Shown: positions 789 through 48,963 of the stretch, piece after piece
How the letters are laid out: every line of letters begins with the position of its first letter
Numbering within the stretch: the stretch's first letter is position 1
Virus record (IMG/VR): IMGVR_UViG_3300017613_000718
Coordinates: 1 to 50,202 of that record
Strand: one strand, 5' to 3'
Length of the DNA: 50,202 nt
Source: a virus
Made by a program: the position numbers and the translations under genes
The notes under the pieces: generated by a model
What the model was told of the DNA's origin: nothing
Seen by the model: only the letters and a program-made list of their open reading frames with translations
The model's database searches: none

Positions 789-2729
789 ATGCCACGCACT
801 AAACGACACGTACCCGGCGTTGGCCCCTACACCGCCCCCTTACTATGGATCGGTGAAGCCCCCGGCCAGACCGAGGAGCGCCGAGGCATTCCATTCGTAG
901 GTGTCTCAGGCAAACGTGTGCGCCACCACCTCAGCAACCATGGCATCGATGCTGAGGACATTCGTATCAACAACGTCATCCCCATCAACGTGGGCAAGAT
1001 CACAGCTCAAAACCGTGACACCTTGTGCGCCTCCTGGTGGGACAACATCACTGACGACCTGGCTCGCATGTCTCCCCGAGTGATCGTGGCTTGTGGCGGC
1101 GTTGCGTTAAGGAGACTGACGAGCTTAACTGACATTACTAACGAATCGGGAGGGGTGATACACTCTAGCACTATCGGTGAAAGTATCACGATCAAGCAGC
1201 GCCGCCTTCCCACACACTTACCTGACGATACCCTTGTGATCCCCATCGTCCACCCTGCCGGCATCATGCGAACCAAGGTGGGCGGTGGCTGGGATCACTT
1301 CGATCGTATCGTGGCACGCATCGCACGCTACGCTACGGGTGCTCTCGAACTACGGCCCCCCAAGCCACATGTCGTCACTCGATTCAAGGCCGACGTACTC
1401 GACCGCGTCCTCACCGAAGCCAGCATCGTCTTCATCGACACCGAATACAACATCGACGACCACATCCCATATCTCATCGGCCTGACCACTGACAAGCTCG
1501 ACGAGCACACCGTCTACAGCTTCGCTCCACACGAGCGCTACGTCGATGTCCTGGCCAAGCACTTCGCCCGCTCAGACCTTCTAAAGGTAGCGCACAACTA
1601 CATGGCAGACGTGCAAGCTCTTCACACTCTAGGTGTGCGTTGGCACCACCCATCGTATTGCACGATGCTTGCTGCGAGCGCGCTCTATCCTGACCTACGA
1701 ATAGGCTTGAACCACGTTGCGCTTTTGTACCTAGACCACATCCGTAATTGGAAGGACATGGCGCACGATGATCCTGAATACAATGCGCTGGATGTGATGT
1801 ATATGCGGATGCTCTTCCCAACGCAACGTCAAGAGATAGCGGCTGCTGGGATGCAACGCCTCCTTACTGAAGAGATCTTCCCGGTCGCACCACTATGCAC
1901 TGCGCTTGAGGTTCGAGGGCTGAGAGTGGATGCGGATATCCAGGCTGAGATGATCGCTGAACGGCAGGCTGAATACGAAGCGACTGAGGCACGGGTCCAA
2001 GATGCTGTGAAGGAGATGTGCGCGAGCAAAAGCGCTGCGATAGAGATCGAGATCCAGCACTTCCAACACGAACACGATTATTATGAAGCGGGCGCTCGTC
2101 GAGCGGTCACCATCCCATGCCCGCTGCACCCTGACTACATCGGCGTGCGTAAGAAGCGATTCGCTACCACCACAGCATGCGAATGCGCCACGATCTACGA
2201 AGCCGTGGCACCCCAACGTGAAGGCATGCGCGAGAAGAAAGCGCAGGTTACCAAGCAGAAAACGAAGCTCAAGAAGTGGACCACCAAAGGCTTCAACCTG
2301 CTCTCGTCCCATGATCTCCGCTGGCTGTTGTACAATGAAGAGGGCTACGGTCTGCCGCCACAACGTAAAGATGGCCGCATCACGACCGACGCAGACGCCG
2401 TGGCCAAGCTGAAACTGATGCTCTATGACAATCGTGCGAAGATCAAATCTAAGTACCATCGCACGAACTGGGAGGAGATCACCAAGGTGCTCAAGGACAT
2501 CAAGCATTGTCAGCACCTGCGGAAGTTCATCAGCACCTTCTTGCAACCTCCAGTAGACGCGCATGGTATAGCGCACCCGCCATATAGACCATGGGGTGCT
2601 GGATCAGGTCGCCCAGCATCAGGGAAGGATGCGGTCGTGGCCTCTGATCGAGGCGCATCAGAGTACACGTTCAACGCCTTGAATATTCCAGACAAATGTC
2701 GGCGGATCTTTATCCCGCACAAACGGTGA
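789..2729 (+). CDS. family-A DNA polymerase, part I: UDG-like domain + 3'-5' exonuclease + N-terminal portion of the polymerase domain
   Basis: GEAPGQTEE..PFVGVSG..HPAG are family-4/5 UDG-fold motifs. FIDTEY, HNYMADVQAL and YNALDV are Exo I-III. The C-terminus GSGRPAS...FNALNIPDKCRRIFIP aligns by eye with Klenow TGRLSS..PNLQNIP..RRIRQAFIAP and stops just before motif A. Confidence 0.85.
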   Translation: MPRTKRHVPGVGPYTAPLLWIGEAPGQTEERRGIPFVGVSGKRVRHHLSNHGIDAEDIRINNVIPINVGKITAQNRDTLCASWWDNITDDLARMSPRVIVACGGVALRRLTSLTDITNESGGVIHSSTIGESITIKQRRLPTHLPDDTLVIPIVHPAGIMRTKVGGGWDHFDRIVARIARYATGALELRPPKPHVVTRFKADVLDRVLTEASIVFIDTEYNIDDHIPYLIGLTTDKLDEHTVYSFAPHERYVDVLAKHFARSDLLKVAHNYMADVQALHTLGVRWHHPSYCTMLAASALYPDLRIGLNHVALLYLDHIRNWKDMAHDDPEYNALDVMYMRMLFPTQRQEIAAAGMQRLLTEEIFPVAPLCTALEVRGLRVDADIQAEMIAERQAEYEATEARVQDAVKEMCASKSAAIEIEIQHFQHEHDYYEAGARRAVTIPCPLHPDYIGVRKKRFATTTACECATIYEAVAPQREGMREKKAQVTKQKTKLKKWTTKGFNLLSSHDLRWLLYNEEGYGLPPQRKDGRITTDADAVAKLKLMLYDNRAKIKSKYHRTNWEEITKVLKDIKHCQHLRKFISTFLQPPVDAHGIAHPPYRPWGAGSGRPASGKDAVVASDRGASEYTFNALNIPDKCRRIFIPHKR

Positions 2730-7756: not shown

Positions 7757-7883
7757 GTGGTGCGCGGGGGCACACAGCTTCGGTTGGGGTTTCGCCCTTG
7801 GTGTGAGCTGTACGTTAGGTGTTCTGGGACTGGTGGGTTGGTGGGTGTGGATAACACCTGAGGAGGACGAGGATGCCAGCTAA
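7740..7883 (+). CDS. possible small membrane protein (47 aa)
   Basis: Internal ATG of track ORF 7581..7883. Sequence: MTRLVEWCAGAHSFGWGFALGVSCTLGVLGLVGWWVWI. It overlaps both neighbouring genes. Confidence 0.35.
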   Translation: MTRLVEWCAGAHSFGWGFALGVSCTLGVLGLVGWWVWITPEEDEDAS

Positions 7884-8841
7884 CATCTACGTCGCCGCAG
7901 ACTTCTCACAAATGGAATCCTTCCTCACCGCATACTTCGCTCAAGACGACGTGATGTGGACCGAGCTACAAGACAGCCTCAAGCCTGGTGGCATCAAGGT
8001 CCACGCACTCAACGCCGCACTGCTATACGACATAGACCCTGCTGATGCCAAGACCCACGAGGTCGAGATCCAAGGCCAGATCACCACCGCATACAAAGGC
8101 GGCAAGAAGGTCTCGCATCTCATCAACTACGGCGGCCAGCCTAAGCTGCTGCACAAGCAACTGTGGCTACCATTGGAGTTCTGTTACGAAGCGCATCGTA
8201 AGATCACCGGCAAGTACGTCCCCACCACACGATGGCGAGAACGGCTGGTCGAGAAAGTCTACGGTGTGATTCAATACCTATGCAACTCTTGCGGGCACGA
8301 GTCCAATATCGGTGGAGTCTGTCCACATTGCACACGTTCCAATAAGCCTGTGCCGATGGTCTACCAAGGCTGGTTGGAGCCCCCGACACGCGAGCTGTTC
8401 ACACCTTTCTTGCGTCGTCGCCGGTATCTGGGTAGGCGTAATGATGGCGCGAACGCTCTCGCGTCCCAACTTCCCCAATCGTGTGGAGCTTCTATCTGGT
8501 ACCGCACGCTTCAACGACTGAACGGATTCACCGCTACCAGCGAAGGCTTTGAGCCTTGGCCTATCCCAACTGGATACCGTATGCTTACGCAACCTTATCA
8601 AGCATTCGAGTACCAGAACCCCATTGCCACCGGCACATACGACTCGTTTGTAGTTGAATGCGCTCCAGCTGACCGTGATACAATCGCCGCTTGGCTCGCG
8701 TGGACAATGGAACAAGCCTGGCCTCAGCTTGGTGGGATTCGTATCCCGGCTGAGGTTGAGTGGGGTGAGAATTGGTACGACCTACGTGAGATGGAGTACC
8801 AGGCTTTCAGCGCGACGAATCCTTTTGAGGAGGCAGCATGA
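7873..8841 (+). CDS. family-A DNA polymerase, part II (palm/fingers: motifs A, B, C) with zinc-ribbon insert
   Basis: ANIYVAADFSQMES is motif A, GGKKVSHLINYGG is motif B, and TYDSFVVE is motif C-like. An inserted CNSCG-x10-CPHC lies between motifs B and C. SD gaggaggacgagg. Confidence 0.85.
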   Translation: MPANIYVAADFSQMESFLTAYFAQDDVMWTELQDSLKPGGIKVHALNAALLYDIDPADAKTHEVEIQGQITTAYKGGKKVSHLINYGGQPKLLHKQLWLPLEFCYEAHRKITGKYVPTTRWRERLVEKVYGVIQYLCNSCGHESNIGGVCPHCTRSNKPVPMVYQGWLEPPTRELFTPFLRRRRYLGRRNDGANALASQLPQSCGASIWYRTLQRLNGFTATSEGFEPWPIPTGYRMLTQPYQAFEYQNPIATGTYDSFVVECAPADRDTIAAWLAWTMEQAWPQLGGIRIPAEVEWGENWYDLREMEYQAFSATNPFEEAA

Positions 8842-11614: not shown

Positions 11615-14600
11615 TTAAGGGCGCTCATCCTGGTCGCCTTGAATCGCCTGTAGTGGCGACGTGATCGTCTGCAGCTTCTCACCAAACCACTCAGCCTGGT
11701 TCGATGACATCTCATTTCCTAAGTATTCACCGAAGTCCCAGAGCTGACGTAAGCCTGGCAATATGTCGTGGGCCAACCCATCGATATCTTTCGCAAACGA
11801 GTCGCGTGCATCTGGATTGGTCGTCAAATGCCAAAACGTGGTCGCTGCATTCACCAAGTCAGACATGATCGGCCCGCCAGTGTAAATCACAGCGTCCTTG
11901 TTTAGACTCCATTTACCAGTGTCGTTGTTGTAGAACACCATTGGGAGTAAGGACACCCCAATGCGATTCAACCAATAAGCTTCACCCTTCTCACTGCCTG
12001 CAAAGCCCATCGTCATGCCGTAGATCGAAGACAACCCCGCAACATACGCTCCGTATTTAAGGAACCGCACATCAATCCCACCAGCCGGGTTGTGTGCTGA
12101 CCTGAGCAAGGACGACAACCGATTAGTGGCGAACTCCATTTGGTGTAACGTGAATGTCTGGAGTGCGCCTGCCGCACCGCCTACTGGTGTGCGTAACAAC
12201 ATCCCACGCGACTCTTTACCAAGTGAAAACTGTGTGGTGGACACGACATCTTTCATGTACTGCTGAATCACTTCCTGTCGTGACGGTGCGCCTTCACGTA
12301 ACGCCATCGTGACTGGGTCAGACATCGGTGTTTGGGACAACGTGCGCTCAGTCCGTGCTAAACGCTGGCGAGCACGATCAGTGCGGGACTTGGTGAACTT
12401 AGATCCAACAGCGCCTGCGGCAGCACCGACAGCCAAACCCTTCAGCGCAGCACCGAACCTGTCCTCAACGTCTTCGCCCTGTTCGCTGTATGCCCCTAAG
12501 AACCCGCCAGCACCAGCACCGGCAGCCACGCTCTCGACGAATTGCACACCACGCTTAGCCTGTCCTGCAAATGCTTGCTGGGCTGACCGTTCAGCCGCTG
12601 CTGCTGTGGTCACACGCAAGAAGCGTTCAACAGTGCTGAACGGCAGGATCGAAGTCTCTGCAAATTTCATCATGGCAGATTTGAGCACTTTAGCAGGGCC
12701 GTCACCATGCATGATGTGCCCTGTTGGTGAGAGCGTTCGCATGATGTGCTGCGTGTTCATGTTTCCAATGCCAAGCTCACGCACCACGCGCAGCATGTTC
12801 CGACCCTTCAGGTTAGGATCTAACCACGCTAGTTTAGGAAACGTCTCAGCAACCTTGCCCTTCACTACACGCGAGCCGCCGACAAACACATTGCCCAAAC
12901 CGACATCAGCTGACGAGTTCACGATCTGCGTGAGGTTCGTCATCGCACTCATGAACGATCCACCGAGCTTGGAGAAGAACGCCCATGATCGAAGCGCATT
13001 CGCTGCCCCGCCGACCACACCCTGCTCCTGCATGCGCTTACCAAGGTGGCCCAACAGCATTGACGGAACTGACGTGCCGCCCATTGCATCTGCCATACTC
13101 GTGAAGTCAACACCGACCTTGTTCAACATGTTGCTTATGCGTAGGGTGCTGAGGCTGGGGATGCCCATGACATCAAGGTACAATCTCCCGAGCTGGCCTG
13201 CGAGAACCTCTTGCCGCTTGCCAAGCTGGTTCCAATACGACGGCCCCAAGTTGGCAATCATCTCATCAAGGTGGATCTTGCGTGTTGCGCCCGCAATGTA
13301 GGTGTGCATGGCTTCGTCGAGAGTCATCATCTCAGTGAGGGGCGTCGCTGCTGTGCGTTGATAGATCGAACGAAATATCTTCGACGCAGACAAGCCTTGC
13401 CCATGCGGGATCAGCAGGTCGTCCTTCCAACCTGTACGTACACCAAACTGCTCTTGCAGTAACTGCCGAATGTCAGCTACCGACTTGGAGGAGTAGTACC
13501 AAGGGAAGTAGTCCTCGATATATTGGCCTTTTTCTAACCCGAGCTGATCCGCAAATGTGTCAAGTAGTGTTCGTAAACGACCGTGCGTGGTGAGCATCTC
13601 AGGGTTAGCTTTGCCGTAACGCTCACGGAAAACCGAGTCCTGCATCATCCGCTTCAGGACTTCCTTTTGCTCCAGATTCAAGCCTCTTACGATATCGGTG
13701 TATTCGTTTGCTGCGATCTCATACCCACGACGAGAACTCTCAGCTGCAGTGGTGATCGAGTGGTAGCCTCTACCAAGCAAGTCGGCGTCAAGTTGCCCTC
13801 GCGCCCCTTGAGACTCGAACTTTTCGATGAACCGCAGGATGCGAGTGGTTGGCGCGAACCAGTCACCAGCATGAATGGCCCCGGATTCAACTTTACCTTT
13901 GCTGACGTTGAGGCTGGTGTTGTCGATCTCGGCTGCGACCTCTTGAATGCGTTTCGCGTTCTTACTAAGTTGTTGGCGTTGCCACTTGTTGCCCCGACGT
14001 GCGAAGTCTGCAAGCGGTATTGGGGCGGACGAGGCGGCGACCTGTGCAGTGAGCAGCATGTCCCGTGCATGCGGTACGTCAACAGCTTGCGAGAGCGGTG
14101 ACGACGCATCGTCTGCGAGTAACCGTAGGTCCAAATTGTAGGCCCGAGGACGTGCAAGGAAGGGTGTCGCCGTTACGCTAAGGTAGCCACGCCACCGTTT
14201 CAGCACGTTGTTTGTGAGTTGCTCTTCAGTAAGCTTGGCGGGCGCGGCCTTACCTGCGCGGGGTTTTGGCTGCCGACGAGTCTCATCAGCGGTAAGCTTT
14301 CGCACCTGCTTGTTGAACAACGCAAACGTGGTGTCATAGGACTCTTGCGTCACGGCATGCGGCGCGTACTTCTGCATGACACGGTCAAGCTCAGGCTGGG
14401 TTCGAGCAACTTGAATGCGCCATGTTCGATATTGGTTCTGCACGTATTCCGGCATGCTGTTGAAACGTGCAACACTCAGCTCAACAGGGTCGAGCTTGCC
14501 GGTCTTACGGTTCTTTGTCCAGCGGGGCTTGATCTTGGTGCCGGTGCGTTCAGCAGTGTGACCAGCTACCGTTTGCTTGCGCCGATAGCCGGTTTTCCAA

Positions 14601-17053
14601 TACGCATAGGCAGTCTTCTCATCAACCGCGCCTTGGAACAGTGGTTCTGTAAGCTTCAATGTTCGGAGAGCTTCTTTGCGGAGCGCACCTCGCCCAACAC
14701 GGCTGGCCATCAACATGCCGATAAGGCCAAATGATCCCATCGCACCGTAACGGGCACCATCATCAGAGTCCATCATGGTTTGCCAGACCGCATCACCAGC
14801 CAAGCCTGCCATCCCACCACCAACACCACCAAGTGCTTGCAGCGCACGCATACCTGGACGACTGAGTTGGATCACGTTGTCAGCCGCTTTGTGTTGGAGG
14901 TCATCGAGCATGCCTTTCAATGTCGGTGCTTCACTGATGACCTTGCGGTTGCCGTTGACTACGTTGAACGTGCGGAATACACGTTTACCCTCTTCCATGG
15001 CGTGCTCGAAGTTGATGCCATGCTCGTCCATGAACCTTTGCACGGACTCTATCTTGATAGGCACTCGACTGACACCTTGAGGAGTAACAGTTCCAGGTAA
15101 GATGCCCTTGACTGAACCCGACCCGGCTGCTGCAACACGATGAATGCCAGCTTCAACCGCCTTACCAGCTCGTTGTAACGATCCGCCGTGGTACCATTCA
15201 CGTAGCGCTTCCGTTACCTTACCTCCCTGTTGCGGCCCAAGTTCTTCAAGCACCTCGTCGAATGTGCTGCGGGCAGGCTCACCTGCAGGTGGCGGTTCCG
15301 ACGTGATGGGTGGTGCTTTTTTCTTCGGCACTGGTGGCACTGGATACTCAGCTCTGCGAGCCTGTGCCAACCGTTGCTCAAGCATGTTCTTCGCCGCAGC
15401 GAGTTGAACCATCTCAGGCGCGGCTTCAGACACGCCTTTGGCTTCTAGTGTGGCAACTCGTTCAGTGAGCTGTGCGAGCTGTGTTTTGAGACCGCGCTCA
15501 AAACCAGGACCGGCCCGGCCTGTCGCATGCCGCAATAGCGGGATGAGCGCATCATCCATGGCATCAGCGGCAGCCCTGACAGAGTCCTCGTATACCGCGC
15601 CCGTCACCTCACCGGCCTCTGCTGGTGTGAGCCGACTTCCACCTTCCTGCAATTTTTTGAGTGTGCTGGCTGGAAGGATTGTGCGAAGGTTCTGTGCGAA
15701 CAGTACCGTGCTGCCGAATCCACTCATGATTGCGGTCTGAAGATCCCCACCGCTAATTGCTGCACCGAAACCTGCACCAGCAGAGAAACGTGCGATGTGG
15801 GGCATGGATTTTTGCAGTGCGGCATTGGCTGTAGGGTTGAGCATCGAAAGGCGCAGCTTGGCCGTGTTTGTAGCGGCTGTCGTCGCAGCCATCCACCGAC
15901 GAGCGCCCAGCATTCCAGATAACGCAACGTCATAGCCCATCCAAGACAGCCCTTGAAACACACCTTGCTGTATAGCATCGAGTGGGGCCATCCCTTTTGC
16001 AGCTGCGTCCATGGTGCCGAACACTGCGCCCTGCATGCCCGCGCTGGTCAACCGACCAAACGTGAGGTTGGGTTGGTGAACAGCTGCCGTAAAGAGCTTC
16101 CGACCACCTCGCGCCAGGCCCGCTTTGGCTCCAGTAAGCTGGCCTGAGATGCCCAAAAGGCTGTTGCGCTCTGCCGCAGCAAGCATCTTGGGTGAGAATC
16201 CGATCGCACGGCCCATCAGGGCGCTGCTGAGCAGCCGTCCTGCGCCTGCACCGGCCATTATGTACTCAATGCTTTCTAGCGTACCGGCGTCGTCTGGGGC
16301 CATCTGAGCGCCTATGAGGCCCCCTACACCAGGAATCACACCGTTGCGTACAGCACTGATGGCGAACCGCGACCCAGCGGTTGCACCCCCTCCAAGTGCT
16401 CGGGTGGCTCCAGCAGTGACAGCTTGCCCAGCTTTGGTGCCGCCAATTCTCAACAGACCACTGGTCAATGCCCCTGATCCTAAGCCGCCAGTGCCGACTG
16501 TCACGGCAATCATGCTGGCCAGGTGCCCAACGGCCTGGCCCCAACCTGACATGCTGGCCTTCCAGGCTTCACGTTGCAGCTCGTCTTCAGGAGCACCGAA
16601 TAGGTTAGATTCAGTCCAGTCGCGAACACGTTTGAGATGGTCTTCAATCTCTCCCATGTGCTGCTCGCCTGTTCGCCCGCCCGTTAAAAAGTCAGGTAGC
16701 AGATCAAGCGCCATGGCCTGCGACTGGCCAAAGCCGCGCTGTTGCAGTTCGTAAAACCCACGCAGCCAACCTGTGACATCGTGCTTGGTGGTGAAGTACG
16801 CCGTTTCCCAAAGGCCCATGCGTTGCGCTGATTCTCGTTGCTCTGCCATAGCACGCAAAGACAGATAGGCGTCATGCGGTGTGTCCGATACCGAGAACAT
16901 GTCTGAGATCTCGTCTTCAGTAAGCAGCCCTTGGTTCTGCACCCGTGAGATCGTAGCATGCGCGTCTTGGTCTACTTGAATGCGTTTGATAAGACGCTTC
17001 GCACGAAGGACTGCTTGTTTCTGCTCGTCGGTGAGGGAGTCAAAGGAGGGCAT
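11615..17053 (-). CDS. giant internal virion/DNA-ejection protein (1812 aa)
   Basis: SD aggag. Gly/Ala-rich hydrophobic blocks and long helical regions. It sits after two other ejection-type proteins, as with T7 gp14-16. No lysozyme, transglycosylase or peptidase motif was recognised. Confidence 0.6.
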   Translation of the reverse strand: MPSFDSLTDEQKQAVLRAKRLIKRIQVDQDAHATISRVQNQGLLTEDEISDMFSVSDTPHDAYLSLRAMAEQRESAQRMGLWETAYFTTKHDVTGWLRGFYELQQRGFGQSQAMALDLLPDFLTGGRTGEQHMGEIEDHLKRVRDWTESNLFGAPEDELQREAWKASMSGWGQAVGHLASMIAVTVGTGGLGSGALTSGLLRIGGTKAGQAVTAGATRALGGGATAGSRFAISAVRNGVIPGVGGLIGAQMAPDDAGTLESIEYIMAGAGAGRLLSSALMGRAIGFSPKMLAAAERNSLLGISGQLTGAKAGLARGGRKLFTAAVHQPNLTFGRLTSAGMQGAVFGTMDAAAKGMAPLDAIQQGVFQGLSWMGYDVALSGMLGARRWMAATTAATNTAKLRLSMLNPTANAALQKSMPHIARFSAGAGFGAAISGGDLQTAIMSGFGSTVLFAQNLRTILPASTLKKLQEGGSRLTPAEAGEVTGAVYEDSVRAAADAMDDALIPLLRHATGRAGPGFERGLKTQLAQLTERVATLEAKGVSEAAPEMVQLAAAKNMLEQRLAQARRAEYPVPPVPKKKAPPITSEPPPAGEPARSTFDEVLEELGPQQGGKVTEALREWYHGGSLQRAGKAVEAGIHRVAAAGSGSVKGILPGTVTPQGVSRVPIKIESVQRFMDEHGINFEHAMEEGKRVFRTFNVVNGNRKVISEAPTLKGMLDDLQHKAADNVIQLSRPGMRALQALGGVGGGMAGLAGDAVWQTMMDSDDGARYGAMGSFGLIGMLMASRVGRGALRKEALRTLKLTEPLFQGAVDEKTAYAYWKTGYRRKQTVAGHTAERTGTKIKPRWTKNRKTGKLDPVELSVARFNSMPEYVQNQYRTWRIQVARTQPELDRVMQKYAPHAVTQESYDTTFALFNKQVRKLTADETRRQPKPRAGKAAPAKLTEEQLTNNVLKRWRGYLSVTATPFLARPRAYNLDLRLLADDASSPLSQAVDVPHARDMLLTAQVAASSAPIPLADFARRGNKWQRQQLSKNAKRIQEVAAEIDNTSLNVSKGKVESGAIHAGDWFAPTTRILRFIEKFESQGARGQLDADLLGRGYHSITTAAESSRRGYEIAANEYTDIVRGLNLEQKEVLKRMMQDSVFRERYGKANPEMLTTHGRLRTLLDTFADQLGLEKGQYIEDYFPWYYSSKSVADIRQLLQEQFGVRTGWKDDLLIPHGQGLSASKIFRSIYQRTAATPLTEMMTLDEAMHTYIAGATRKIHLDEMIANLGPSYWNQLGKRQEVLAGQLGRLYLDVMGIPSLSTLRISNMLNKVGVDFTSMADAMGGTSVPSMLLGHLGKRMQEQGVVGGAANALRSWAFFSKLGGSFMSAMTNLTQIVNSSADVGLGNVFVGGSRVVKGKVAETFPKLAWLDPNLKGRNMLRVVRELGIGNMNTQHIMRTLSPTGHIMHGDGPAKVLKSAMMKFAETSILPFSTVERFLRVTTAAAAERSAQQAFAGQAKRGVQFVESVAAGAGAGGFLGAYSEQGEDVEDRFGAALKGLAVGAAAGAVGSKFTKSRTDRARQRLARTERTLSQTPMSDPVTMALREGAPSRQEVIQQYMKDVVSTTQFSLGKESRGMLLRTPVGGAAGALQTFTLHQMEFATNRLSSLLRSAHNPAGGIDVRFLKYGAYVAGLSSIYGMTMGFAGSEKGEAYWLNRIGVSLLPMVFYNNDTGKWSLNKDAVIYTGGPIMSDLVNAATTFWHLTTNPDARDSFAKDIDGLAHDILPGLRQLWDFGEYLGNEMSSNQAEWFGEKLQTITSPLQAIQGDQDERP

Positions 17054-37961: not shown

Positions 37962-38192
37962 TCAATCCTTGGATGCGTCTAGGTAGATGTGGGGTGGGAC
38001 GTGGTGGTCGGGGTCGCGTTCTCGGTCGCGGAGCCACTTGAAGTAGGTGCGTTCGTTGATGCCACGCATGGCGAGTTCCCGGCGGAACTTCTTGAGGGCG
38101 CGGATGCAGGTCTCTTGGGCTTGTTGACGGGTGATGCCGAGTTCGGCGGCGATGGAATCGTAGGTGGGGAGGTCACCGTTATTGTTGCTCAT
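37962..38192 (-). CDS. small sigma-70 region-4-like HTH protein (76 aa)
   Basis: YDSIAAELGITRQQAQETCIRALKKFRREL matches the region 4.2 HTH pattern. It lies between the TerS-like gene and terL. Confidence 0.5.
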   Translation of the reverse strand: MSNNNGDLPTYDSIAAELGITRQQAQETCIRALKKFRRELAMRGINERTYFKWLRDRERDPDHHVPPHIYLDASKD

Positions 38193-38929
38193 TGCACTTC
38201 GACCTCTTCAGGTTCTACGTCAACGATGTCTGCGAGTACGTCTGACATGTCGAGACCTGATTCTTGGATAGCGTCTTTCATGTTGTTGGCCTGGATCTTG
38301 TTGGGACGGAAAGGTGTGACGTTTGATGCGTTGCCCTGGCCTGGTTGGGCAGCCATTCCTGACTGTTCGTATGCGGTCTTCGATGCGTCGATGGCGGCAC
38401 GGATTTCACCTGCTCCCATGCGACGTTCGCCAGCTGAGTCCATGCCGATGCGGTCGCGAAGTAGTTCGATGGTCTCTGATAGGAGGGTTTGGCTGCGGAT
38501 GTAGATGGCGCGTTGTCGGATGACGGGCTCGGAGGCTTCGCACGCGAGGGTCTTGTCGATGCTGGAGTATACGTCGGTGAGGAGTTCGTTGAAGATGACG
38601 GCGAATTGCGGGTCGTCCATGTGGGTTTGGAGCAGGTTCTTGGTGATCCCGACGTGCCGTGCGATGGCTTCACGATCGGTGAGGTTGTCTGAGAGGATGA
38701 GGCGACAGATTTGAGCGTAGCGGGCACGGACTACAGGGTCGATTGCGAATTTGCGACGGCGGTCTTTGCTGTATTTGCGTGTGACGATCATGTCCATGGA
38801 TTCATGGCGTTCGTGTTCGTAGGCGTCAGCTGCGTCAGCGGCGAGTTGCATTGGAGTTGGGTCTTCGATGTAAGCGTAGACCGGCGCTCGTTCGATGCAA
38901 CCGAAGTCGTACTTTCGTGGTCTTGGCAT
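38189..38929 (-). CDS. putative terminase small subunit (246 aa from ATG 38929; the track extends to a TTG at 38986)
   Basis: First gene of the late arm, upstream of terL. HTH-like LTDREAIARHVGITKNLL followed by a helical region. Neither candidate start has an SD. Confidence 0.45.
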   Translation of the reverse strand: MPRPRKYDFGCIERAPVYAYIEDPTPMQLAADAADAYEHERHESMDMIVTRKYSKDRRRKFAIDPVVRARYAQICRLILSDNLTDREAIARHVGITKNLLQTHMDDPQFAVIFNELLTDVYSSIDKTLACEASEPVIRQRAIYIRSQTLLSETIELLRDRIGMDSAGERRMGAGEIRAAIDASKTAYEQSGMAAQPGQGNASNVTPFRPNKIQANNMKDAIQESGLDMSDVLADIVDVEPEEVEVQ

Positions 38930-38935
38930 GGAGGT

Positions 38936-38965
38936 AGGATACGGTGATGTGGGCTGGTAGGTCAA
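38936..38965 (-). promoter_or_regulatory. candidate sigma70-type promoter giving a leaderless late transcript
   Basis: Minus strand reads TTGACC-18 nt-TATCCT, then 6 nt (acctcc), then ATG 38929. Confidence 0.35.
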
Positions 38966-39070
38966 GACGTAAATTCTTTCACGCAATAACTGTGCTTGAT
39001 GAGGGGGAGTTGTTGCGTAAAACCGAGGTCGAGAGTTAATGGGAACTATATTTCCCTCCCCCCTTACAAT

Positions 39071-39237
39071 CCCCCCTATAAAGAGTCTTTAATGATGCGG
39101 TTTGGGTTGGCACAGGATATCGTGAGAACGAAACTAAAGCGAAAGTGCATATAGTATTAGATCGATTTTGTGATAGTTAAAATTCCTTCAGCACATCTCA
39201 AATTTTGCGCTACATTTTTTGCAACTCTTTAGGGGGG
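39071..39237. repeat. inverted repeat CCCCCCTA(TA)AAGAGT / ACTCTTTAGGGGGG flanking an AT-rich 137-bp core
   Basis: 39071-39086 versus 39224-39237. The arms are complementary except for a 2-nt TA insertion. Confidence 0.8.
39151..39180 (-). promoter_or_regulatory. candidate sigma70-type leftward promoter
   Basis: Minus strand reads TTAACT-18 nt-TACTAT. Confidence 0.3.
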
Positions 39238-39256
39238 TACGGCGGTCGTGGTGGAA

Positions 39257-39272
39257 GGGGGGCCTACCCCCC
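39257..39272. other. perfect G6-CCTA-C6 hairpin
   Basis: ggggggcctacccccc, lying directly upstream of the first iteron. Confidence 0.85.
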
Positions 39273-39279
39273 GTTCATT

Positions 39280-39755
39280 TCGGCATTGTGGTACCTGTTT
39301 GCGCACACGGCAGTGGTGTTGTTGCGGTATTCGAGTACCTGTTTACCTTCTATCAAGCGACCCACGCGCCCACCTATTTCGGTATTGTGGTACCAGATGT
39401 ACCAGTTTACCGTGCTATTAAGGTATTGTAGTACCGTAATAGGTGCATCAAATGTGTCGCATACATGAATTAACCTTCGTACTCTACAGCTTATATCGGT
39501 ATTTCAGTACCAAATTGAGCTACTTCAAAATTTCAAGGTTAACCCATTTTGGCATGCGGTTTGCTAGGATATGTGGATATGCAATGAACATGCCATTTCG
39601 CTTAGCACGTAAGTAAGGCGAATGTAGTGTGACGCTGTCGCGCTGTGTGGCCGGTGTGGCGTGGCGATATACGCACGGGTGCATCTACCTTGATATAAAG
39701 ATCTCCGCTGTGTGGCCAGCTGGTGAGACGTGAGCACTATCGGCATTCGAGTACT
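39280..39755 (+). promoter_or_regulatory. array of six 16-bp iterons, consensus TCGGYATTSNRGTACC
   Basis: Copies: 39280-39295 tcggcattgtggtacc; 39324-39339 gcggtattcgagtacc; 39379-39394 tcggtattgtggtacc; 39420-39435 aaggtattgtagtacc; 39496-39511 tcggtatttcagtacc; 39740-39755 tcggcattcgagtact. Copies 1 and 2 are both followed by TGTTT. There is also a 12-bp direct repeat cgctgtgtggcc at 39641 and 39706. Confidence 0.85.
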
Positions 39756-39860
39756 TGATCTCTTTATATGGTGGCTTTCGCTTTATGTTCGTGCTCGCCG
39801 TTAGCAATAGGTGTGCCAAAGCATGGTTGAATAAAAGACTAGATTGGTCTACTGAAATTG

Positions 39861-39889
39861 TTGACTAGCGTGCAATTGCAGTGTATAAA
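39861..39889 (+). promoter_or_regulatory. strong sigma70-type early promoter
   Basis: TTGACT-17 nt-TATAAA, 29 nt upstream of the first plus-strand gene (SD aggagg, ATG 39918). Confidence 0.7.
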
Positions 39890-39917
39890 TAAGGCACACT
39901 TTCAATAGGAGGAAACC

Positions 39918-40118
39918 ATGCTAGACAAATCAGAAAAGCAACTCGATCAAATCAGAGCATTGCTGCATAAAGCGCACACGTTAGCGCACAAGATGTGCAA
40001 AGCCGAGCGGAAACGCTACCAGTACGGCGAACCGGTCTACGCCGCTGTTGGCAGCATCACCGATGCAGTCTACAGCGGTATCTCTGCCGTTGAAGTGTTA
40101 GACAGTCTACAGCAATAA
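39918..40118 (+). CDS. hypothetical early protein (66 aa)
   Basis: Track ORF with SD taggaggaaacc. Confidence 0.75.
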   Translation: MLDKSEKQLDQIRALLHKAHTLAHKMCKAERKRYQYGEPVYAAVGSITDAVYSGISAVEVLDSLQQ

Positions 40119-40129
40119 AGGATAAAACC

Positions 40130-40642
40130 ATGGATATAGATTATGGCCTAGGCCAAACGAACATCAACCTAAAAACTGGCATCCACTATGGTGTTATTTC
40201 ACAACACAGCATTCTGCCAGAAGCATTAGACGATGTTCTGGTAGAAGGATCTATCTATCCTACAAACTGTCCGGAATGTGGATTCGAAGTAGATCCCAAC
40301 AACCTGCCGATGGCGTGCGAATCGTGCGGTTTCGTTTCTGACGATGATTCCGAATGGTACGCAGAGGAGTCTAGCGGATTCGAGTACACCGATTCAGAAT
40401 ACTCTCTAGTCGATTGTCTTGATTCGGACGTGTTCGTTCTGAAATCGTCATTCTACACACATACGAGGTTCTGTAGCCCATGCGTTCCCGGCGCTGGAAA
40501 CCTAGACTCGCCCACTGAAGACGGCGCACGAACATATTGCCTTGGACATGATTGGTTTGAGGGTGGTAAAGCCCCGTATCCGGTCTATAGGGTACCGTGC
40601 GGGAAAGTTACTGACAATTCAATCGTTAAAGCTGAAGCATAG
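40130..40642 (+). CDS. Zn-ribbon protein (170 aa)
   Basis: Track ORF with CPECG...CESCG. SD aaaggataaaacc. Confidence 0.7.
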   Translation: MDIDYGLGQTNINLKTGIHYGVISQHSILPEALDDVLVEGSIYPTNCPECGFEVDPNNLPMACESCGFVSDDDSEWYAEESSGFEYTDSEYSLVDCLDSDVFVLKSSFYTHTRFCSPCVPGAGNLDSPTEDGARTYCLGHDWFEGGKAPYPVYRVPCGKVTDNSIVKAEA

Positions 40643-40653
40643 GAGCACACAAG

Positions 40654-41016
40654 ATGAACAAAACAAAAGAAGTAATCCCCGCGTATGGCCGCGACTACAA
40701 GACCGCCGGTCTAGCGCGGTATGCCTGGGAAACAGGGAAAGATTTCCAACTAGCGTCTATCTTCGATGGGCAACAGCTGATCAACAAACAGGATGCAGAA
40801 ACCGTCGGGCTTCATATCCTGATACGGTTCGACCGGCTAACGAAGTTGCATGATACACACCGGCCCCTACCGGTAAAGACCAAGAAAATGCTATTCGGGC
40901 CCGTTCCAACTAAGAAACCGCGCAAGTTGGGACCGTGCGAATTTTGTGGCCTACCTGGATTCCATCACAACAAAAGCTTAGGTATCGACCTGTGCGTTGA
41001 ATGTACTGATCAATAG
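40654..41016 (+). CDS. hypothetical protein with C-terminal Cys cluster (120 aa)
   Basis: Track ORF with CEFCG...CVEC. Confidence 0.7.
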   Translation: MNKTKEVIPAYGRDYKTAGLARYAWETGKDFQLASIFDGQQLINKQDAETVGLHILIRFDRLTKLHDTHRPLPVKTKKMLFGPVPTKKPRKLGPCEFCGLPGFHHNKSLGIDLCVECTDQ

Positions 41017-41024
41017 GTGAAAGC

Positions 41025-41699
41025 ATGCTAATTCGTGACGCATATTTGACGATCGGTGGCAGTACATCGGCATCGAAAATGTCCGCCGGTGTGGAGTGCC
41101 TGGCGTTTGACCCGCGACAGTGCCACACCGGCAGTAAGATGCGCAAAAAGAAGGGCACTATTTGCCGCGAGGGATGCTACGGATTCGATGGCTGTTGTAG
41201 GTTCTCGACAACCAAGATCGCAGAGGCTCGGCGTATGGACGCATATCGAGAAGCAGATCCAGCTGAATATCAGGCGGCGTTTGTGCGCATATTAGGTGAT
41301 GGACGACGTGAGCGAATGCGCTGGTTTACAGATGGGGATCTAGCGGATGCGGCTATGCTACGCATTATCAAAGCGATAGCCGAACGGACACCTGACACGC
41401 GGCACTGGCTACCGACAAAGGAACGCGGGTGGCTGATAGCATTCGAGCGGCGCAATGTGTGGCCGGATAATGTGTGCGCACGGCTGTCACTACCTGGGAT
41501 AAATCAAAAGGTGCCTATGTCGGTGAGCGACCGGCCCATATCCACGGTGCATACTGATCCATCGGTGTATCCTGATGCACACATATGTCCAGCTTACGAA
41601 CAAGACGGCACCTGTGGAGATTGTGACGCATGCTGGAATAGAGAGGTTTTGCATGTTAGCTACCCGTTTCATAAGAACGGGAGAAAGGTGGCAGCATGA
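41025..41699 (+). CDS. conserved-looking Cys-rich protein (224 aa); family unverified
   Basis: CREGCYGFDGCC...RWFTDGDL...HWLPTKERGW...CGDCDACW. I cannot assign a family without a search. Confidence 0.6.
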   Translation: MLIRDAYLTIGGSTSASKMSAGVECLAFDPRQCHTGSKMRKKKGTICREGCYGFDGCCRFSTTKIAEARRMDAYREADPAEYQAAFVRILGDGRRERMRWFTDGDLADAAMLRIIKAIAERTPDTRHWLPTKERGWLIAFERRNVWPDNVCARLSLPGINQKVPMSVSDRPISTVHTDPSVYPDAHICPAYEQDGTCGDCDACWNREVLHVSYPFHKNGRKVAA

Positions 41700-41995
41700 C
41701 ACAACGAAAGAGACCTGATATCCGAATCTGCCAGGCGGTTGTGTGCCGTCTCGGTAACAACGTGGTACCGGACTTCAAGACCGACGCGCACGAACGGTTG
41801 TTCGTCAACCGTGTACTGTTAGAAGAAGGAGCGACGTACAGCGAATTCCGCCTGCTGGACGAAAAGCCGGGCCGAGATGACTGGAACGGGTACGAAGGTC
41901 TGCACGGTGAATGGCACCATCGGTTGCGACGCAACAGAAACCATCCGATAAGCGGTAAGGAGATGTTCGAGATTCTGGCGAAGAATGACGCGTAA
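41696..41995 (+). CDS. hypothetical protein, possible His-Me finger (99 aa)
   Basis: GEWHHRLRRNRNH is HNH-like. ATGA overlap with the upstream gene. Confidence 0.5.
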   Translation: MTQRKRPDIRICQAVVCRLGNNVVPDFKTDAHERLFVNRVLLEEGATYSEFRLLDEKPGRDDWNGYEGLHGEWHHRLRRNRNHPISGKEMFEILAKNDA

Positions 41996-42030
41996 TAGGC
42001 TCCCATACACAACCATAAATAGAGGACACG

Positions 42031-42225
42031 ATGACCAACAACCAAATGATTGAGAAAGTGCTCCGTTTGGGTTATGAGATTGAGAACCTCGAAGAAGAAC
42101 TGAACAACAAATCGACCGAGATTGAAGGCGTGGAAGAAGAGTGGATCAAGACCCACGCGTGCAGCTGTGGGCTATTTCAAATCCCAGAATGTGCAACAGC
42201 GTGCGTGAGTTGTAAACACGTATAG
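42031..42225 (+). CDS. hypothetical protein (64 aa)
   Basis: Track ORF with SD agaggacacg. Confidence 0.6.
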   Translation: MTNNQMIEKVLRLGYEIENLEEELNNKSTEIEGVEEEWIKTHACSCGLFQIPECATACVSCKHV

Positions 42226-42240
42226 ACGGAGGACAAAACC

Positions 42241-42363
42241 ATGGAACAAAAATATTGCACTCTCTGCAACGGGCCGTTAGTGTATCTCGGTGCGTTAGGG
42301 TATCTGGAATGGTACCGGTGCCAGCACTGTGGGATGGATCAGAATAGTGAACTAGGGGAGTGA
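42241..42363 (+). CDS. Zn-ribbon mini-protein (40 aa; below the track cut-off)
   Basis: Hand translation: MEQKYCTLCNGPLVYLGALGYLEWYRCQHCGMDQNSELGE. SD ggaggacaaaacc. Confidence 0.55.
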   Translation: MEQKYCTLCNGPLVYLGALGYLEWYRCQHCGMDQNSELGE

Positions 42364-42369
42364 ACTGTA

Positions 42370-42741
42370 ATGAGTAATATGGCGATAAGCAACGACTACG
42401 GATATGGATCGGCAGAATGCGACAATTGCGACGAAGGTCCGTTCAAGATTCAGGATTTGAAAAGCATCCGAGATTTCGGTCAGCGAGTCGACGCGGGAAG
42501 CGAGGTTCCGGCAGGCGAGTGTCCGGAATGTGGCGGACTTTGCTATGCGGTCGGGAAACCCTCGAACATCTCTGAGCCTACGATGAAGCGACTGGAACGC
42601 GAACTGGCTGAGTCAAAGGCTGATCTGGAGAAATTGCAGGCGGATCGCGACGCCTATCGCAAAGCATACCTGCGGCGGTGTACCGATGTGCGCGACCTCA
42701 AGGAGGCGGTGAGGAGCCTCATCGAAATAGGTCTCAAATAA
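42370..42741 (+). CDS. Zn-ribbon + coiled-coil protein (123 aa)
   Basis: Track ORF with CDNCD...CPECGG. Confidence 0.7.
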   Translation: MSNMAISNDYGYGSAECDNCDEGPFKIQDLKSIRDFGQRVDAGSEVPAGECPECGGLCYAVGKPSNISEPTMKRLERELAESKADLEKLQADRDAYRKAYLRRCTDVRDLKEAVRSLIEIGLK

Positions 42742-42762
42742 GCCAACATGGAGGACTGAGCG

Positions 42763-42972
42763 ATGACAAACGAAAACGACACCATGCCGGACTTGATGTT
42801 CCGTGCGCTCAATACCACGGAGCTGGACGAATTTCAACAATGGGCCGTGGACAACTGGGAACCTGGGAAGCCTGTCAAAAACTTCTGGCATCCTGTTGTG
42901 CGCGAGACCTGGGCTAAGCTTGAAGCTGAACACTGTCGGCAACAGGCTGAGCGGGTGCAACGTGACGGATAA
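42763..42972 (+). CDS. hypothetical protein (69 aa)
   Basis: Track ORF with SD atggaggactgagcg. Confidence 0.65.
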   Translation: MTNENDTMPDLMFRALNTTELDEFQQWAVDNWEPGKPVKNFWHPVVRETWAKLEAEHCRQQAERVQRDG

Positions 42973-43162
42973 AAAGATCCCTCACATCATCACAAAACAA
43001 GGTACGCATTACATCATGTCTCGATCTACAATATTGTCGCGCCACAGCTCACCAACTGCGGCACAGATGACACTGGAAGAGATGCTCAAATCGTATACAT
43101 TCGCAGCTGACAAATCGCAACGATCTCGGCTCATTGCTGAGTGGAGCAAGCGTGGGCGATAG
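42962..43162 (+). CDS. possible small protein (66 aa from a GTG; start uncertain)
   Basis: C-terminal part of track ORF 42803..43162, which otherwise overlaps 42763..42972. No good SD. Confidence 0.3.
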   Translation: MTDKKIPHIITKQGTHYIMSRSTILSRHSSPTAAQMTLEEMLKSYTFAADKSQRSRLIAEWSKRGR

Positions 43163-43310
43163 GGCTAGAGATGCGTAACATGTTGAAAACAAACCCACAA
43201 GGACGCAACGCCGGGTGCCGTGCCGAGGGCGGTGGACATTTGAGACCCAAAAACACGCCAAAAGATCCCAAAAACAACGATCCTGCTAGGATTCCTAGCT
43301 GTCGCCTACC

Positions 43311-43355
43311 GGCACCACACGACACCACAAGGGTACGGGTACCGGCGGTGGTGCC
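43311..43355 (+). terminator. possible intrinsic terminator/hairpin at the end of the first early block
   Basis: GGCACCAC (43311-43318) pairs with GTGGTGCC (43348-43355), followed by ttatctttc. The loop is long (29 nt) and contains gggtacgggtacc. Confidence 0.3.
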
Positions 43356-43399
43356 TTATCTTTCAACGACTTACAACGATTTGCCGGAATGCCGTGAGG

Positions 43400-43575
43400 T
43401 CTCTATCTATATAATAAAAATAGACATCAAAAGTGAAGGAATTATAAGAACGGGTTGGGTGGGTGTAATAATATTATGTAATATAAGAAATATAATAATT
43501 GAAACCTTTCCTGCATACCTACAAATCCTCTACTTTTCCCCTCTATATCTACTCTACAGATAGGAATTTCACGAC
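43400..43575. other. AT-rich non-coding tract (second control region)
   Basis: ctctatctatataataaaaatagacatc...gtaataatattatgtaatataagaaatataataattg. Visibly far more A+T than the flanks. No SD-led ORF. Confidence 0.7.
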
Positions 43576-43777
43576 AGCGCCAAAAATTCTCGCAAGTTAT
43601 TGAGGACAAAAGGACAAAGCATGCACACATACCCTCGCTCTGCCGTGAAATGCCGAGACGCTGCTGCTAGGATATCTACAATGCTCTCGCTTTTCACCAG
43701 TATCGAAGCGAAACCTGGTGTATACTGTCCACTGCAGGTCGCCCGGCATTTAGATGGCGCATCTCAAGGGGTTTAGA

Positions 43778-44224
43778 ATGAACAACTTACCAGAAAAAGC
43801 ACACTGTAAAGCATGCGACCGCACGCTCCCGATCGAGCGCTTTGCCATAATCGTCAGGGACATGGCCCGTAGACCGGCCCCACGCTGCCGTCACTGCCAG
43901 ATGTGCGCTAGGCAGGCCACCAGGCTCAACTGCAAGGCATCGGCCCGTGGCGACGATTCTCGCGTGTCTCTGGAGGTGGTGTACGAGCTGCGTAAGCGAT
44001 CCAAGGATCGGTGCCAGGCGAGATTGGGTAGGCGAAGGTGCTCGAAGCCTGCCACGGCGATAAGGCAGCGGGTGCCATGGTCGTTGGGTGGGCACAATAC
44101 TGCATCGAATTTGATGCACACATGCAAGGGCTGTTGCCTCAAGCTGAATGGGGCGCTCAAGCATATCGATGCATCGAGGGCGACGATGAGCGCGTTGCAG
44201 AAGCGGTTGAGAAAGTTGAGATAG
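43778..44224 (+). CDS. HNH-like endonuclease, degenerate motif (148 aa)
   Basis: CKAC...CRHC, then VPWSLGGHNTASNLMHTCKGCCLKLNG, which matches P.s.GG....NL...C..C..K. The usual DH upstream of the Pro reads IRQR. ATG 43778 is preceded by aagggg. Confidence 0.55.
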   Translation: MNNLPEKAHCKACDRTLPIERFAIIVRDMARRPAPRCRHCQMCARQATRLNCKASARGDDSRVSLEVVYELRKRSKDRCQARLGRRRCSKPATAIRQRVPWSLGGHNTASNLMHTCKGCCLKLNGALKHIDASRATMSALQKRLRKLR

Positions 44225-48683: not shown

Positions 48684-48714
48684 GCCATGCGAAGGAGGAC
48701 ACTACAAGATAAGC

Positions 48715-48749
48715 CGCACACGAGGTTGTTGTTGTTGCCTGCGTGTGCG
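48715..48749 (+). other. hairpin with a (TTG)4 loop downstream of the DUF669-like gene
   Basis: CGCACACG (48715-48722) pairs with CGTGTGCG (48742-48749). AGG/CCT extends the stem, with one bulged G. The loop is ttgttgttgttg. No T-tract follows. Confidence 0.5.
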
Positions 48750-48908
48750 TCGAGAAGCGGGCTTTGCTCATGGCCTGCTCCTGCATCCACCCCACTCGAC
48801 GACAGGGTTGATTCGCCCTGGATGGTGCGCGGTCGGTTGTCCTCCTGCCGCGTTTCGTTGGGTGGGGATGGGTGTGGTTTCCCAAACGGCACACGGTACT
48901 CGTAATCT

Positions 48909-48924
48909 GGTACTTGAATACCGA
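48909..48924 (-). promoter_or_regulatory. distal, inverted copy of the control-region iteron
   Basis: ggtacttgaataccga is the reverse complement of tcggtattcaagtacc. A half-site ggtactcgtaat lies at 48895-48906. Located in a 280-bp non-coding gap. Confidence 0.7.
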
Positions 48925-48963
48925 AATCTATTAACCACTCTACGTTAGCAAGGAGATAAGCCA

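Follow-up and report, generated by a model that had tools for sequence, protein, structure and literature searches.

Introduction

The non-coding region that extends, probably, from 38930 to 39917 of the virus record IMGVR_UViG_3300017613_000718 (50,202 nt, analysed at its full length and hereafter called the window) holds an array of six 16-mers and, beside it, a module of G-runs, both of which can be compared with described elements. The origin recognized by the lambda O protein and the iteron origins of the plasmids P1, pSC101, R6K, and RK2 contain 16-22 bp direct repeats with partial dyad symmetry and an AT-rich neighbour, and phage P4 has a distant extra site, crr. The lambda operators OL/OR, the coliphage 186 CI sites FL/FR, and the mycobacteriophage L5 stoperators are sets of near-identical 13-17 bp sites of imperfect symmetry, some of them far from the main cluster. 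Phased repeats flank the cleavage zone in pac sites, as in the repeat layouts of P1 and SPP1 pac, and G-rich RNA primers are found at the ColE1 and mitochondrial CSBII origins. In Staphylococcus aureus pathogenicity islands (SaPIs), Rep binds iterons through its C-terminal winged helix and loads itself at an AT-rich centre, the repeat sequence being lineage-specific (PMC9371898); rings of the small terminase TerS use many helix-turn-helix (HTH) contacts (PMC4737164).

Like SaPI ori/Rep and P4 ori with crr/alpha, the window has several copies of one short sequence by an AT-rich stretch and encodes an AAA+ protein with a C-terminal winged helix; its distant seventh 16-mer recalls crr, and its repeat, as in the SaPIs, is lineage-specific. 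It differs from both in that the sites of its array, 16-22 nt in size, are all co-oriented and 41-76 nt apart, that they lie about 20 kb from the AAA+ gene, and that their binding is a prediction. The features named above for lambda ori and the plasmid iteron origins also recur in the window, although in those systems one repeat directly follows another, about every two helical turns, usually inside or beside the initiator gene, and the plasmid origins add DnaA boxes. With the lambda, 186, and L5 operator sets the window shares multiple near-identical sites and a distant copy, but there some sites overlap promoters and a repressor gene is nearby, neither of which is seen here, and L5 stoperators run with transcription, whereas the seventh 16-mer is reversed. 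The G-run module, like the R sites of lambda cosB and the pac sites of P1 and SPP1, is a single-copy, multi-box element with an AT-rich spacer that lies 70-340 nt upstream of a TerS-like gene and is conserved with it; however, its sequence is unrelated to described cos and pac sites, and it is known here from sequence rather than from mapped termini.

Results

Seven copies of a lineage-specific 16-mer

From their sequence and distribution, we conclude that the 16-mers are binding sites of one sequence-specific, lineage-specific protein, which would serve seven places in the genome. All six same-orientation copies named in the original prediction were found on the + strand, with 0-2 mismatches to the reference TCGGYATTSNRGTACC (Table 1), and they lie within 476 nt of non-coding DNA as the clustered direct repeats that an iteron-type origin would have. 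With up to three mismatches allowed, the window contains 18 matches vs 5.5 ± 2.3 in shuffled sequences, and none of 100 shuffles reached 18. A longer site of 22-24 nt has the 16-mer as its core, and a position weight matrix built from 24-nt sites detected exactly seven sites at 27-35 bits in the whole genome, followed by copy 4 read on the reverse strand (16 bits) and by scores of less than 12 bits. The seventh copy lies 40 nt upstream of a gene that starts at GTG 48964, and its flanks match those of copy 3 (ATTTCGGTATTnnnGTACCAGAT), which itself is followed by an extra half-site, GTACCAGTTTACC, at 39399-39411. The array is the strongest repeat cluster in the genome, no other 600-nt stretch matching its 12-mer copy number.

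The core consensus, GGYATT-NN-RGTACC, is quasi-palindromic, with five of the seven position pairs of the 14-bp core complementary; GGTA..TACC is symmetric, but an asymmetry at T5/G10 is fixed in all copies. Start-to-start spacings of copies 1-6 are 44, 55, 41, 76, and 244 nt. Because none of these is a multiple of 3, and the copies fall in different reading frames, protein-coding repeats were rejected, as was avoidance of the restriction sites GTAC/GGTACC, the counts of which are normal.

As single strands the 16-mers do not fold (0 to -1.8 kcal/mol), and none overlaps either of the two promoters at the edges of the region; we therefore regard them as sites recognized by a protein in duplex DNA rather than as operators or hairpin promoters. 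Copies 1-5 lie 350-580 nt upstream of the -35 element of the only good rightward promoter and copy 6 lies 105 nt upstream of it; the predicted start of early transcription is about 150 nt downstream of the centre of copy 6. Since the sites are in addition lineage-specific and include a copy 9 kb away, operators of the classical, promoter-overlapping kind, which had been offered as one explanation, do not describe them, although a regulatory array of another kind keeps some probability, as discussed below.

Conservation of the 16-mers in related genomes had been set beforehand as a test, and it was not observed. Relatives were gathered via the large terminase TerL, giving about 30 loci (L007, L008, and so on) with TerL identities of 37-59%; a search for closer relatives or strain variants of the window found none. 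The relatives retain the G-run module (about 20 loci) but not the 16-mers. A motif-pair scan of IMG/VR gave six matches, five of them coding tandem repeats and one (L004) an unrelated intergenic pair, and no relative.

A conserved G-run module that follows the TerS-like gene

The most distinctive result is a conserved cis-element, the G-run module. Runs of at least six G or C occur seven times in the genome vs about 36 expected, and five of them fall within 39058-39272. In the window, three 'TTKWA-G6' boxes, of which two are inverted, surround an AT-rich spacer; the remaining part of the module is GGAA-G6-CCTA-C6, which includes a perfect hairpin, GGGGGG-CCTA-CCCCCC, at 39257-39272. This hairpin and the inverted repeat within 39071-39237 had both been pointed out in the original prediction, and both were recovered, the arms of the latter (39071-39086 and 39224-39237) being 85-86% complementary over 13-14 nt. 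The proposal that the inverted repeat brackets the AT-rich core of an origin does not fit well: the G-run boxes behave as a module that follows the TerS-like gene; the inverted boxes at 39058-39086 are a peculiarity of the window and create the inverted repeat around the spacer.

About 20 relatives, with TerL identities down to 37%, carry the module as a conserved block of about 95 nt that ends at the hairpin. The pattern 'CTTKWA-G6, 12-15 nt, GAA-G6, 1-4-nt loop, C5-9' is present in L007, L008, L012, L018-L020, L023, L024, L030, L033-L036, L038, L042, L044, and L046, and variant modules are found in L010, L011, L031, L047, and L049. The module is single-copy in each locus and always lies upstream of the TerS-like gene, at a distance of 0.1-2.5 kb; it stays with this gene both in L012, where the upstream genes are co-directional, and in L010, where the divergence point is 2.5 kb away. 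This association with the TerS-like gene leads us to consider the module most likely to be a packaging recognition site (pac or cos), and its occurrence as a single copy conserved with the adjoining terminase genes, in about 20 loci, is what such a site should display. A packaging signal had been among the functions first suggested for the region; the module fits it, even away from the divergence point. Its layout in the window recalls pac sites whose boxes flank the cleavage zone.

When 18 sequences were analysed with RNAalifold, no covariation was detected, G always occupying the 5' arm and C the 3' arm, and in L047 the C-run is 55 nt away. For this reason, we read the module as a conserved DNA signal that is presumably bound by a protein common to the clade. 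A structured RNA or intrinsic terminator was rejected for the hairpin, given essentially no compensatory G/C changes, the mostly missing U-tail, and no match in Rfam; a micro-ORF (open reading frame) was rejected because G-run lengths vary among relatives. A broader proposal is that the hairpin and G-runs act as RNA, either as a short non-coding transcript running from the AT-rich patch to a G6-CCTA-C6 terminator or as a G-rich R-loop primer like those of ColE1 and CSBII. The terminator scan does flag 39257-39272 (+) with a T-rich tail, the conserved block ends at the hairpin, and the 236-nt fold has a z-score of -2.0. However, the T-rich tail is absent in most relatives and no convincing promoter lies upstream, which, together with the missing covariation, the displaced C-run of L047, and the lack of an Rfam family, makes this the least probable of the readings considered here.

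The obvious candidates for binding the module are the two HTH proteins of the packaging block, which are kept in nearly all relatives. Only three features, position, an HTH motif, and a conserved C-terminal tail, support the label TerS, and in the window's protein the recognition helix of the HTH deviates from the consensus of the clade. Nearly all of the about 20 relatives examined have the gene for the small sigma-region-4-like protein immediately upstream of TerL, the exceptions, in which it is absent or unclear, being L007, L008, and L047; its product could be a part of the terminase or a late regulator. In the window and relatives this protein has 55-114 aa and the pattern LLPW.EIA..LG.S...V...Y.RAL.KLR.

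Many contigs, most of them short, stop 0-550 nt from the module, and their ends differ between assemblies of the same phage. L047, L048, L049, L013, L016, L009, L033, and L038 end near it, L049 4 nt after a G6 box and L047 at a C6 run. These breaks could reflect sequencing drop-outs at G-runs, population variability, or real DNA ends; the scattered ends show no fixed terminus, and Illumina assemblies are in any case prone to break at such runs.

Origin, gene switch, or packaging signal

The 16-mers may serve as an origin, as a gene switch, or as part of a packaging signal. We tentatively place first, at less than an even chance and by a small margin, the reading that they are iterons of a replication origin. 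An initiator, for which the AAA+/winged-helix DUF3987 protein is the candidate, would bind the roughly helically phased 16-mers (spacings of 3.9-7.2 helical turns), bend or wrap the DNA, and open the adjoining AT-rich patch at 39512-39620, and the seventh copy would be an auxiliary or autoregulatory site; we infer here both which protein binds which site and that replication starts through the binding. The model of the DUF3987 protein (18 homologues, mean pLDDT, the predicted local distance difference test, 84) has an AAA+ core followed by a helix-helix-helix-strand-strand arrangement, that is, a winged helix, at residues 403-468 (recognition helix 438-450), and MCM subunits, ORC/Cdc6, and SaPI PriRep1 are among its Foldseek matches at E ~1e-3 or better. 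Because of this predicted winged helix and these matches, the phage very probably recognises its own origin. Also in favour of an origin are the seven clean sites, with nothing intermediate in score, which form the top repeat cluster of the genome; the common orientation of the six local copies, with an AT-rich patch beside copy 5; their avoidance of both promoters; and the phage-encoded replication set, comprising a fusion of uracil-DNA glycosylase (UDG) with PolA, a PolA-like ORF, and the AAA+/winged-helix protein. The array spacings deviate by at most 0.25 turn from whole helical turns, for which chance is about 3%, yet they are irregular.

A number of observations weigh against this reading. 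Instead of recurring regularly at about two helical turns (about 22 bp), the 16-mers are spaced at 41-76 nt, more widely and less evenly than classical iterons, and no set in the opposing orientation was found across the AT-rich patch. GC skew does not switch at 39 kb, the + strand skew being positive on both sides of the gap, and DnaA boxes of either the E. coli or the actinobacterial TTGTCCACA type are not enriched in the window or its relatives. The seventh site, just upstream of a gene start, would suit a regulator, and for the protein that binds the 16-mers there are candidates only. Furthermore, AT content is highest elsewhere in the genome, in a patch at 43400-43510 (20-29% GC) within the non-coding region 43163-43778 (about 600 nt) of the early arm, which is without any 16-mer. 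In nine relatives, TGTC[AC]-type words show a 4-7x enrichment at up to 400 nt from the patch with the highest AT content in the locus, and in L007, L008, L010, and L019 this patch lies 2.6-4.4 kb from the hairpin, inside the early arm, as it does in the window (about 4 kb). Since the relatives' arrays cluster at such a patch, and at this distance in four of them, comparative support for an origin points to 43.4 kb at least as much as to the 39-kb gap, and we regard 43163-43778, from its sequence features, as a serious alternative location. Of the original argument, which took iterons by an AT-rich core for an origin, the repeats and a local AT-rich patch stand, while the position of the most AT-rich patch and the irregular spacing count against it.

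The arrays of the relatives have a layout of their own. In L023, a 515-nt stretch contains TGTCCCG 17 times, with a phasing of 9-11 nt; the copies are direct repeats to one side of an AT-rich patch and inverted to the other, and L036, L020, and L024 are similar, with TGTCCCGA, TGTCCAC/TGTCAC, and TGTCAT/TGACA, respectively. Like the 16-mers, these four arrays sit beside AT-rich patches in the interval that separates the G-hairpin from the early genes, which counts in favour of an origin here, and they have the layout of SaPI-type origins, in which iterons on both sides of an AT-rich centre are bound by the C-terminal winged helix of an SF3 helicase (PMC9371898). In four relatives the patch is 330-410 nt from the hairpin. 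Arrays of the TGTCAC/TGTCAT/TGTCCCGA type, in both orientations, are seen at 2100-2800 in L007, 3520-4740 in L008, 5580-6460 in L010, and 800-1400 in L019, and TGTC-type repeats reach a density of 6-22 per kb around the AT-rich patch vs 1.4-6.6 per kb overall. Because the arrays track the most AT-rich patch, they are not plain positional counterparts of the 16-mers; judged by their layout, they are probably the clade's origin or its main regulatory hub.

In the window, the TGTC-type repeats of 43163-43778 amount to just an inverted pair of TGTCCAC. A terminator-like hairpin (43337-43356) precedes the AT-rich patch, and the region has a 17-nt exact word in common with the AT-rich patch of L020. 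The patch is flanked by a perfect palindrome, GCTAGGATTCCTAGC (43285-43299), by phased CCCAAAAACA repeats, and by the inverted TGTCCAC pair. CTAGGAT occurs only three times in the genome (39564, 43286, and 43667), always on the + strand, in non-coding DNA, and as TGCTAGGAT(A/T)(T/C), and it could be a further regulatory motif, one that connects the two non-coding regions.

The reading that comes next, nearly as probable as the first, makes the seven sites operators or enhancer-like sites of a dimeric, HTH-type phage transcription factor that would control the operons starting at 39918 and 48964, for example by looping or through a multi-dimer wheel, and so time the early-to-middle/late switch. 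The partial dyad symmetry of the core would suit such a factor, as would the position of the extra copy shortly before the first gene of the next block, the opposite orientation of which is easy for a dimer site; the sites head two of the three rightward gene blocks, and the low GC content common to the array and the first early block (45-50% vs 56%) suggests joint acquisition. Against it, the 16-mers stay clear of the -35 and -10 elements by the distances given above, there is no promoter-like site at the seventh copy (where a scan found no terminator-like site either), and for operators it would be unusual to come as five to six sites of one orientation at such a distance from a promoter. 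Moreover, Pfam and PHROGs scans of the flanking ORFs revealed no repressor, Cro-like, or other HTH gene, though very divergent proteins might escape such scans.

It is, by comparison, quite improbable that the 16-mers are accessory sites for a small terminase ring (TerS-like or sigma-region-4-like), forming with the G-run module one extended pac/cos region in which DNA is wrapped before cleavage. The array does begin 8 nt past the module that tracks the TerS-like gene, phased repeats that flank a cleavage zone and TerS rings with many HTH contacts are known, and the window's TerS-like protein has a deviating recognition helix. However, the module lies between the array and the terminase genes, the seventh copy, 9 kb off, has no obvious packaging role, relatives hold the module without 16-mers, and contigs of the same phage end at differing places.

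Borders, promoters, and other features

We read 38930-39917 as a composite control region of two functionally separate parts that lies between two outward-facing sigma-70-type promoters. A promoter scan of the gap gave just two sites with at least 9/12 consensus positions, one at each edge (Table 1). The rightward one, already noted in the original prediction, is followed by GGAGG (39908-39912) and ATG 39918; L007 and L008 have near-consensus promoters in the same position, just ahead of the first early gene. The non-coding stretch was first given as 38987-39917; it is present, but its left edge is probably at 38930, because the TerS-like ORF, listed with a start at TTG 38986, more likely begins at ATG 38929 (the shorter protein would begin MPRPRKYDF). 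The leftward promoter ends 6 nt from this ATG, with no Shine-Dalgarno sequence, which suggests a leaderless-type transcript and the shorter protein.

Table 1. Features of the control region and associated loci in the window
Feature	Position	Strand	Remarks
Candidate leftward promoter, TTGACC-18-TATCCT	38936-38965	-	9/12 consensus positions; putative function
Two inverted G-boxes, - strand reading TTGTAAGGGGGG and CTCTTTATAGGGGGG	39058-39086	-	Left arm of inverted repeat
AT-rich patch 1, 31-37% GC	39087-39223		Between inverted and direct G-boxes
Clade-conserved G-run module	39224-39272	+	ACTCTTTA-G6 39224-39237, 15-nt spacer, GGAA-G6-CCTA-C6 39253-39272
16-mer copy 1, TCGGCATTGTGGTACC	39280-39295	+	31.5 bits; 0 mismatches
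16-mer copy 2, GCGGTATTCGAGTACC	39324-39339	+	30.5 bits; 1 mismatch
16-mer copy 3, TCGGTATTGTGGTACC	39379-39411	+	34.6 bits; 0 mismatches; position includes half-site
16-mer copy 4, AAGGTATTGTAGTACC	39420-39435	+	27.0 bits; 2 mismatches
16-mer copy 5, TCGGTATTTCAGTACC	39496-39511	+	30.1 bits; 1 mismatch
AT-rich patch 2, 34-44% GC	39512-39620		Adjoins copy 5; holds TGCTAGGATAT at 39562-39572
GT-rich stretch, exact 12-mer CGCTGTGTGGCC at each end (39641, 39706)	39641-39717	+	
16-mer copy 6, TCGGCATTCGAGTACT	39740-39755	+	27.5 bits; 1 mismatch
Early promoter, TTGACT-17-TATAAA	39861-39889	+	10/12 consensus positions; best promoter-like site in gap
Seventh 16-mer copy, TCGGTATTCAAGTACC	48909-48924	-	0 mismatches; inside 280-nt gap 48684-48963
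UDG-PolA fusion ORF	789-2729	+	Uracil-DNA-glycosylase-like domain joined to family A polymerase 3'-5' exonuclease region
Separate PolA-like ORF	7873-8841		
DUF3987 AAA+ protein, C-terminal winged helix	9892-11304	+	Candidate origin-binding initiator-helicase; putative link to 16-mers
Small sigma-region-4-like HTH protein	37962-38192	-	Second candidate binder of G-run module
TerS-like HTH protein	38189-38929	-	Candidate binder of G-run module

The 12-nt direct repeat that had been reported is exact at both positions and bounds the GT-rich stretch. GTGG-rich DNA also lies 3' of the hairpin in L007, L008, and L044, and GT-rich stretches follow the hairpin in L030 as well as in these three; in the window, GTGG, GGTGG, and GTGTGG words occur at 39630-39730 and, beside the seventh 16-mer, at 48840-48880. 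The sequence GCTGGTGA at 39719 is 7/8 identical to E. coli Chi. A 22-nt inverted repeat (arms 39124-39145 and 39775-39796, 19/22 complementary, 629 nt between the arms) brackets the G-run module and the 16-mer array, with a chance probability that we estimate at about 1e-3.

The window is an assembly of the circular type: its two ends share 121 identical nt, and it amounts to about 50,081 nt, with a mean GC content of 56%. The - strand genes extend leftwards from 38929 (TerS-like gene) to 11615 and encode the small HTH protein, TerL, portal, and structural proteins; those on the + strand run from 39918 across the window end to 11618 and encode the UDG-PolA fusion, the second PolA-like ORF, a Sak4-like AAA_24 protein, and the DUF3987 protein. 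The 39-kb gap is not the only non-coding region, as 43163-43778 and 48684-48963 are non-coding too. The first early gene block (39918-43162) and the 16-mer array have a GC content of 45-53% vs 56% in the rest of the genome, which hints that they were acquired together. TerL matches PHROG 38 (E = 1e-14); a tblastn search with it against 50,697 phage records gave no match, and only 11 homologues were found among 5.8 billion proteins. The phage is uncultivated and belongs to a clade without a cultured relative. Searches for Rfam families, tRNA, and attP gave no match and no tRNA, and no integrase, ParA/ParB, or repressor turned up among the ORFs scanned.

The structural arm has at its far end a 1812-aa ORF (11615-17053, - strand), which is without a Pfam, PHROG, or PDB sequence match and is by position the counterpart of the giant virion proteins of N4-like phages. 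An N4-type system, in which the 16-mers would be hairpin early promoters and this ORF a virion RNA polymerase, was rejected: the repeats do not fold, the early promoters of the window, L007, and L008 are of the sigma-70 (host) type, and the ORF carries no polymerase signal.

Discussion

The control region is real, but it is of a fairly ordinary kind for a phage and is built from known kinds of cis-elements. If the 16-mers are the iterons of an origin, their wide, irregular spacing and the distant extra site would extend known origin layouts; as regulatory sites, they would define the early switch of a phage group that is otherwise unknown. Current ideas would stand in either case.

In a more far-reaching reading, which is rather unlikely as a whole, the module, with its two or three 'TTGTA-G6' boxes followed by GAA-G6-loop-C6, is a previously undescribed cis-element of a whole uncultivated clade of ~50-kb phages. 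As such it would perhaps be the packaging initiation site or, more unusually, a transcription-coupled priming or R-loop element that would form a combined replication-and-packaging hub with lineage-specific iterons read by an MCM/ORC-like AAA+/winged-helix protein. Any cis-element, once mapped, would anchor the annotation of about 20 or more metagenomic genomes of the clade.

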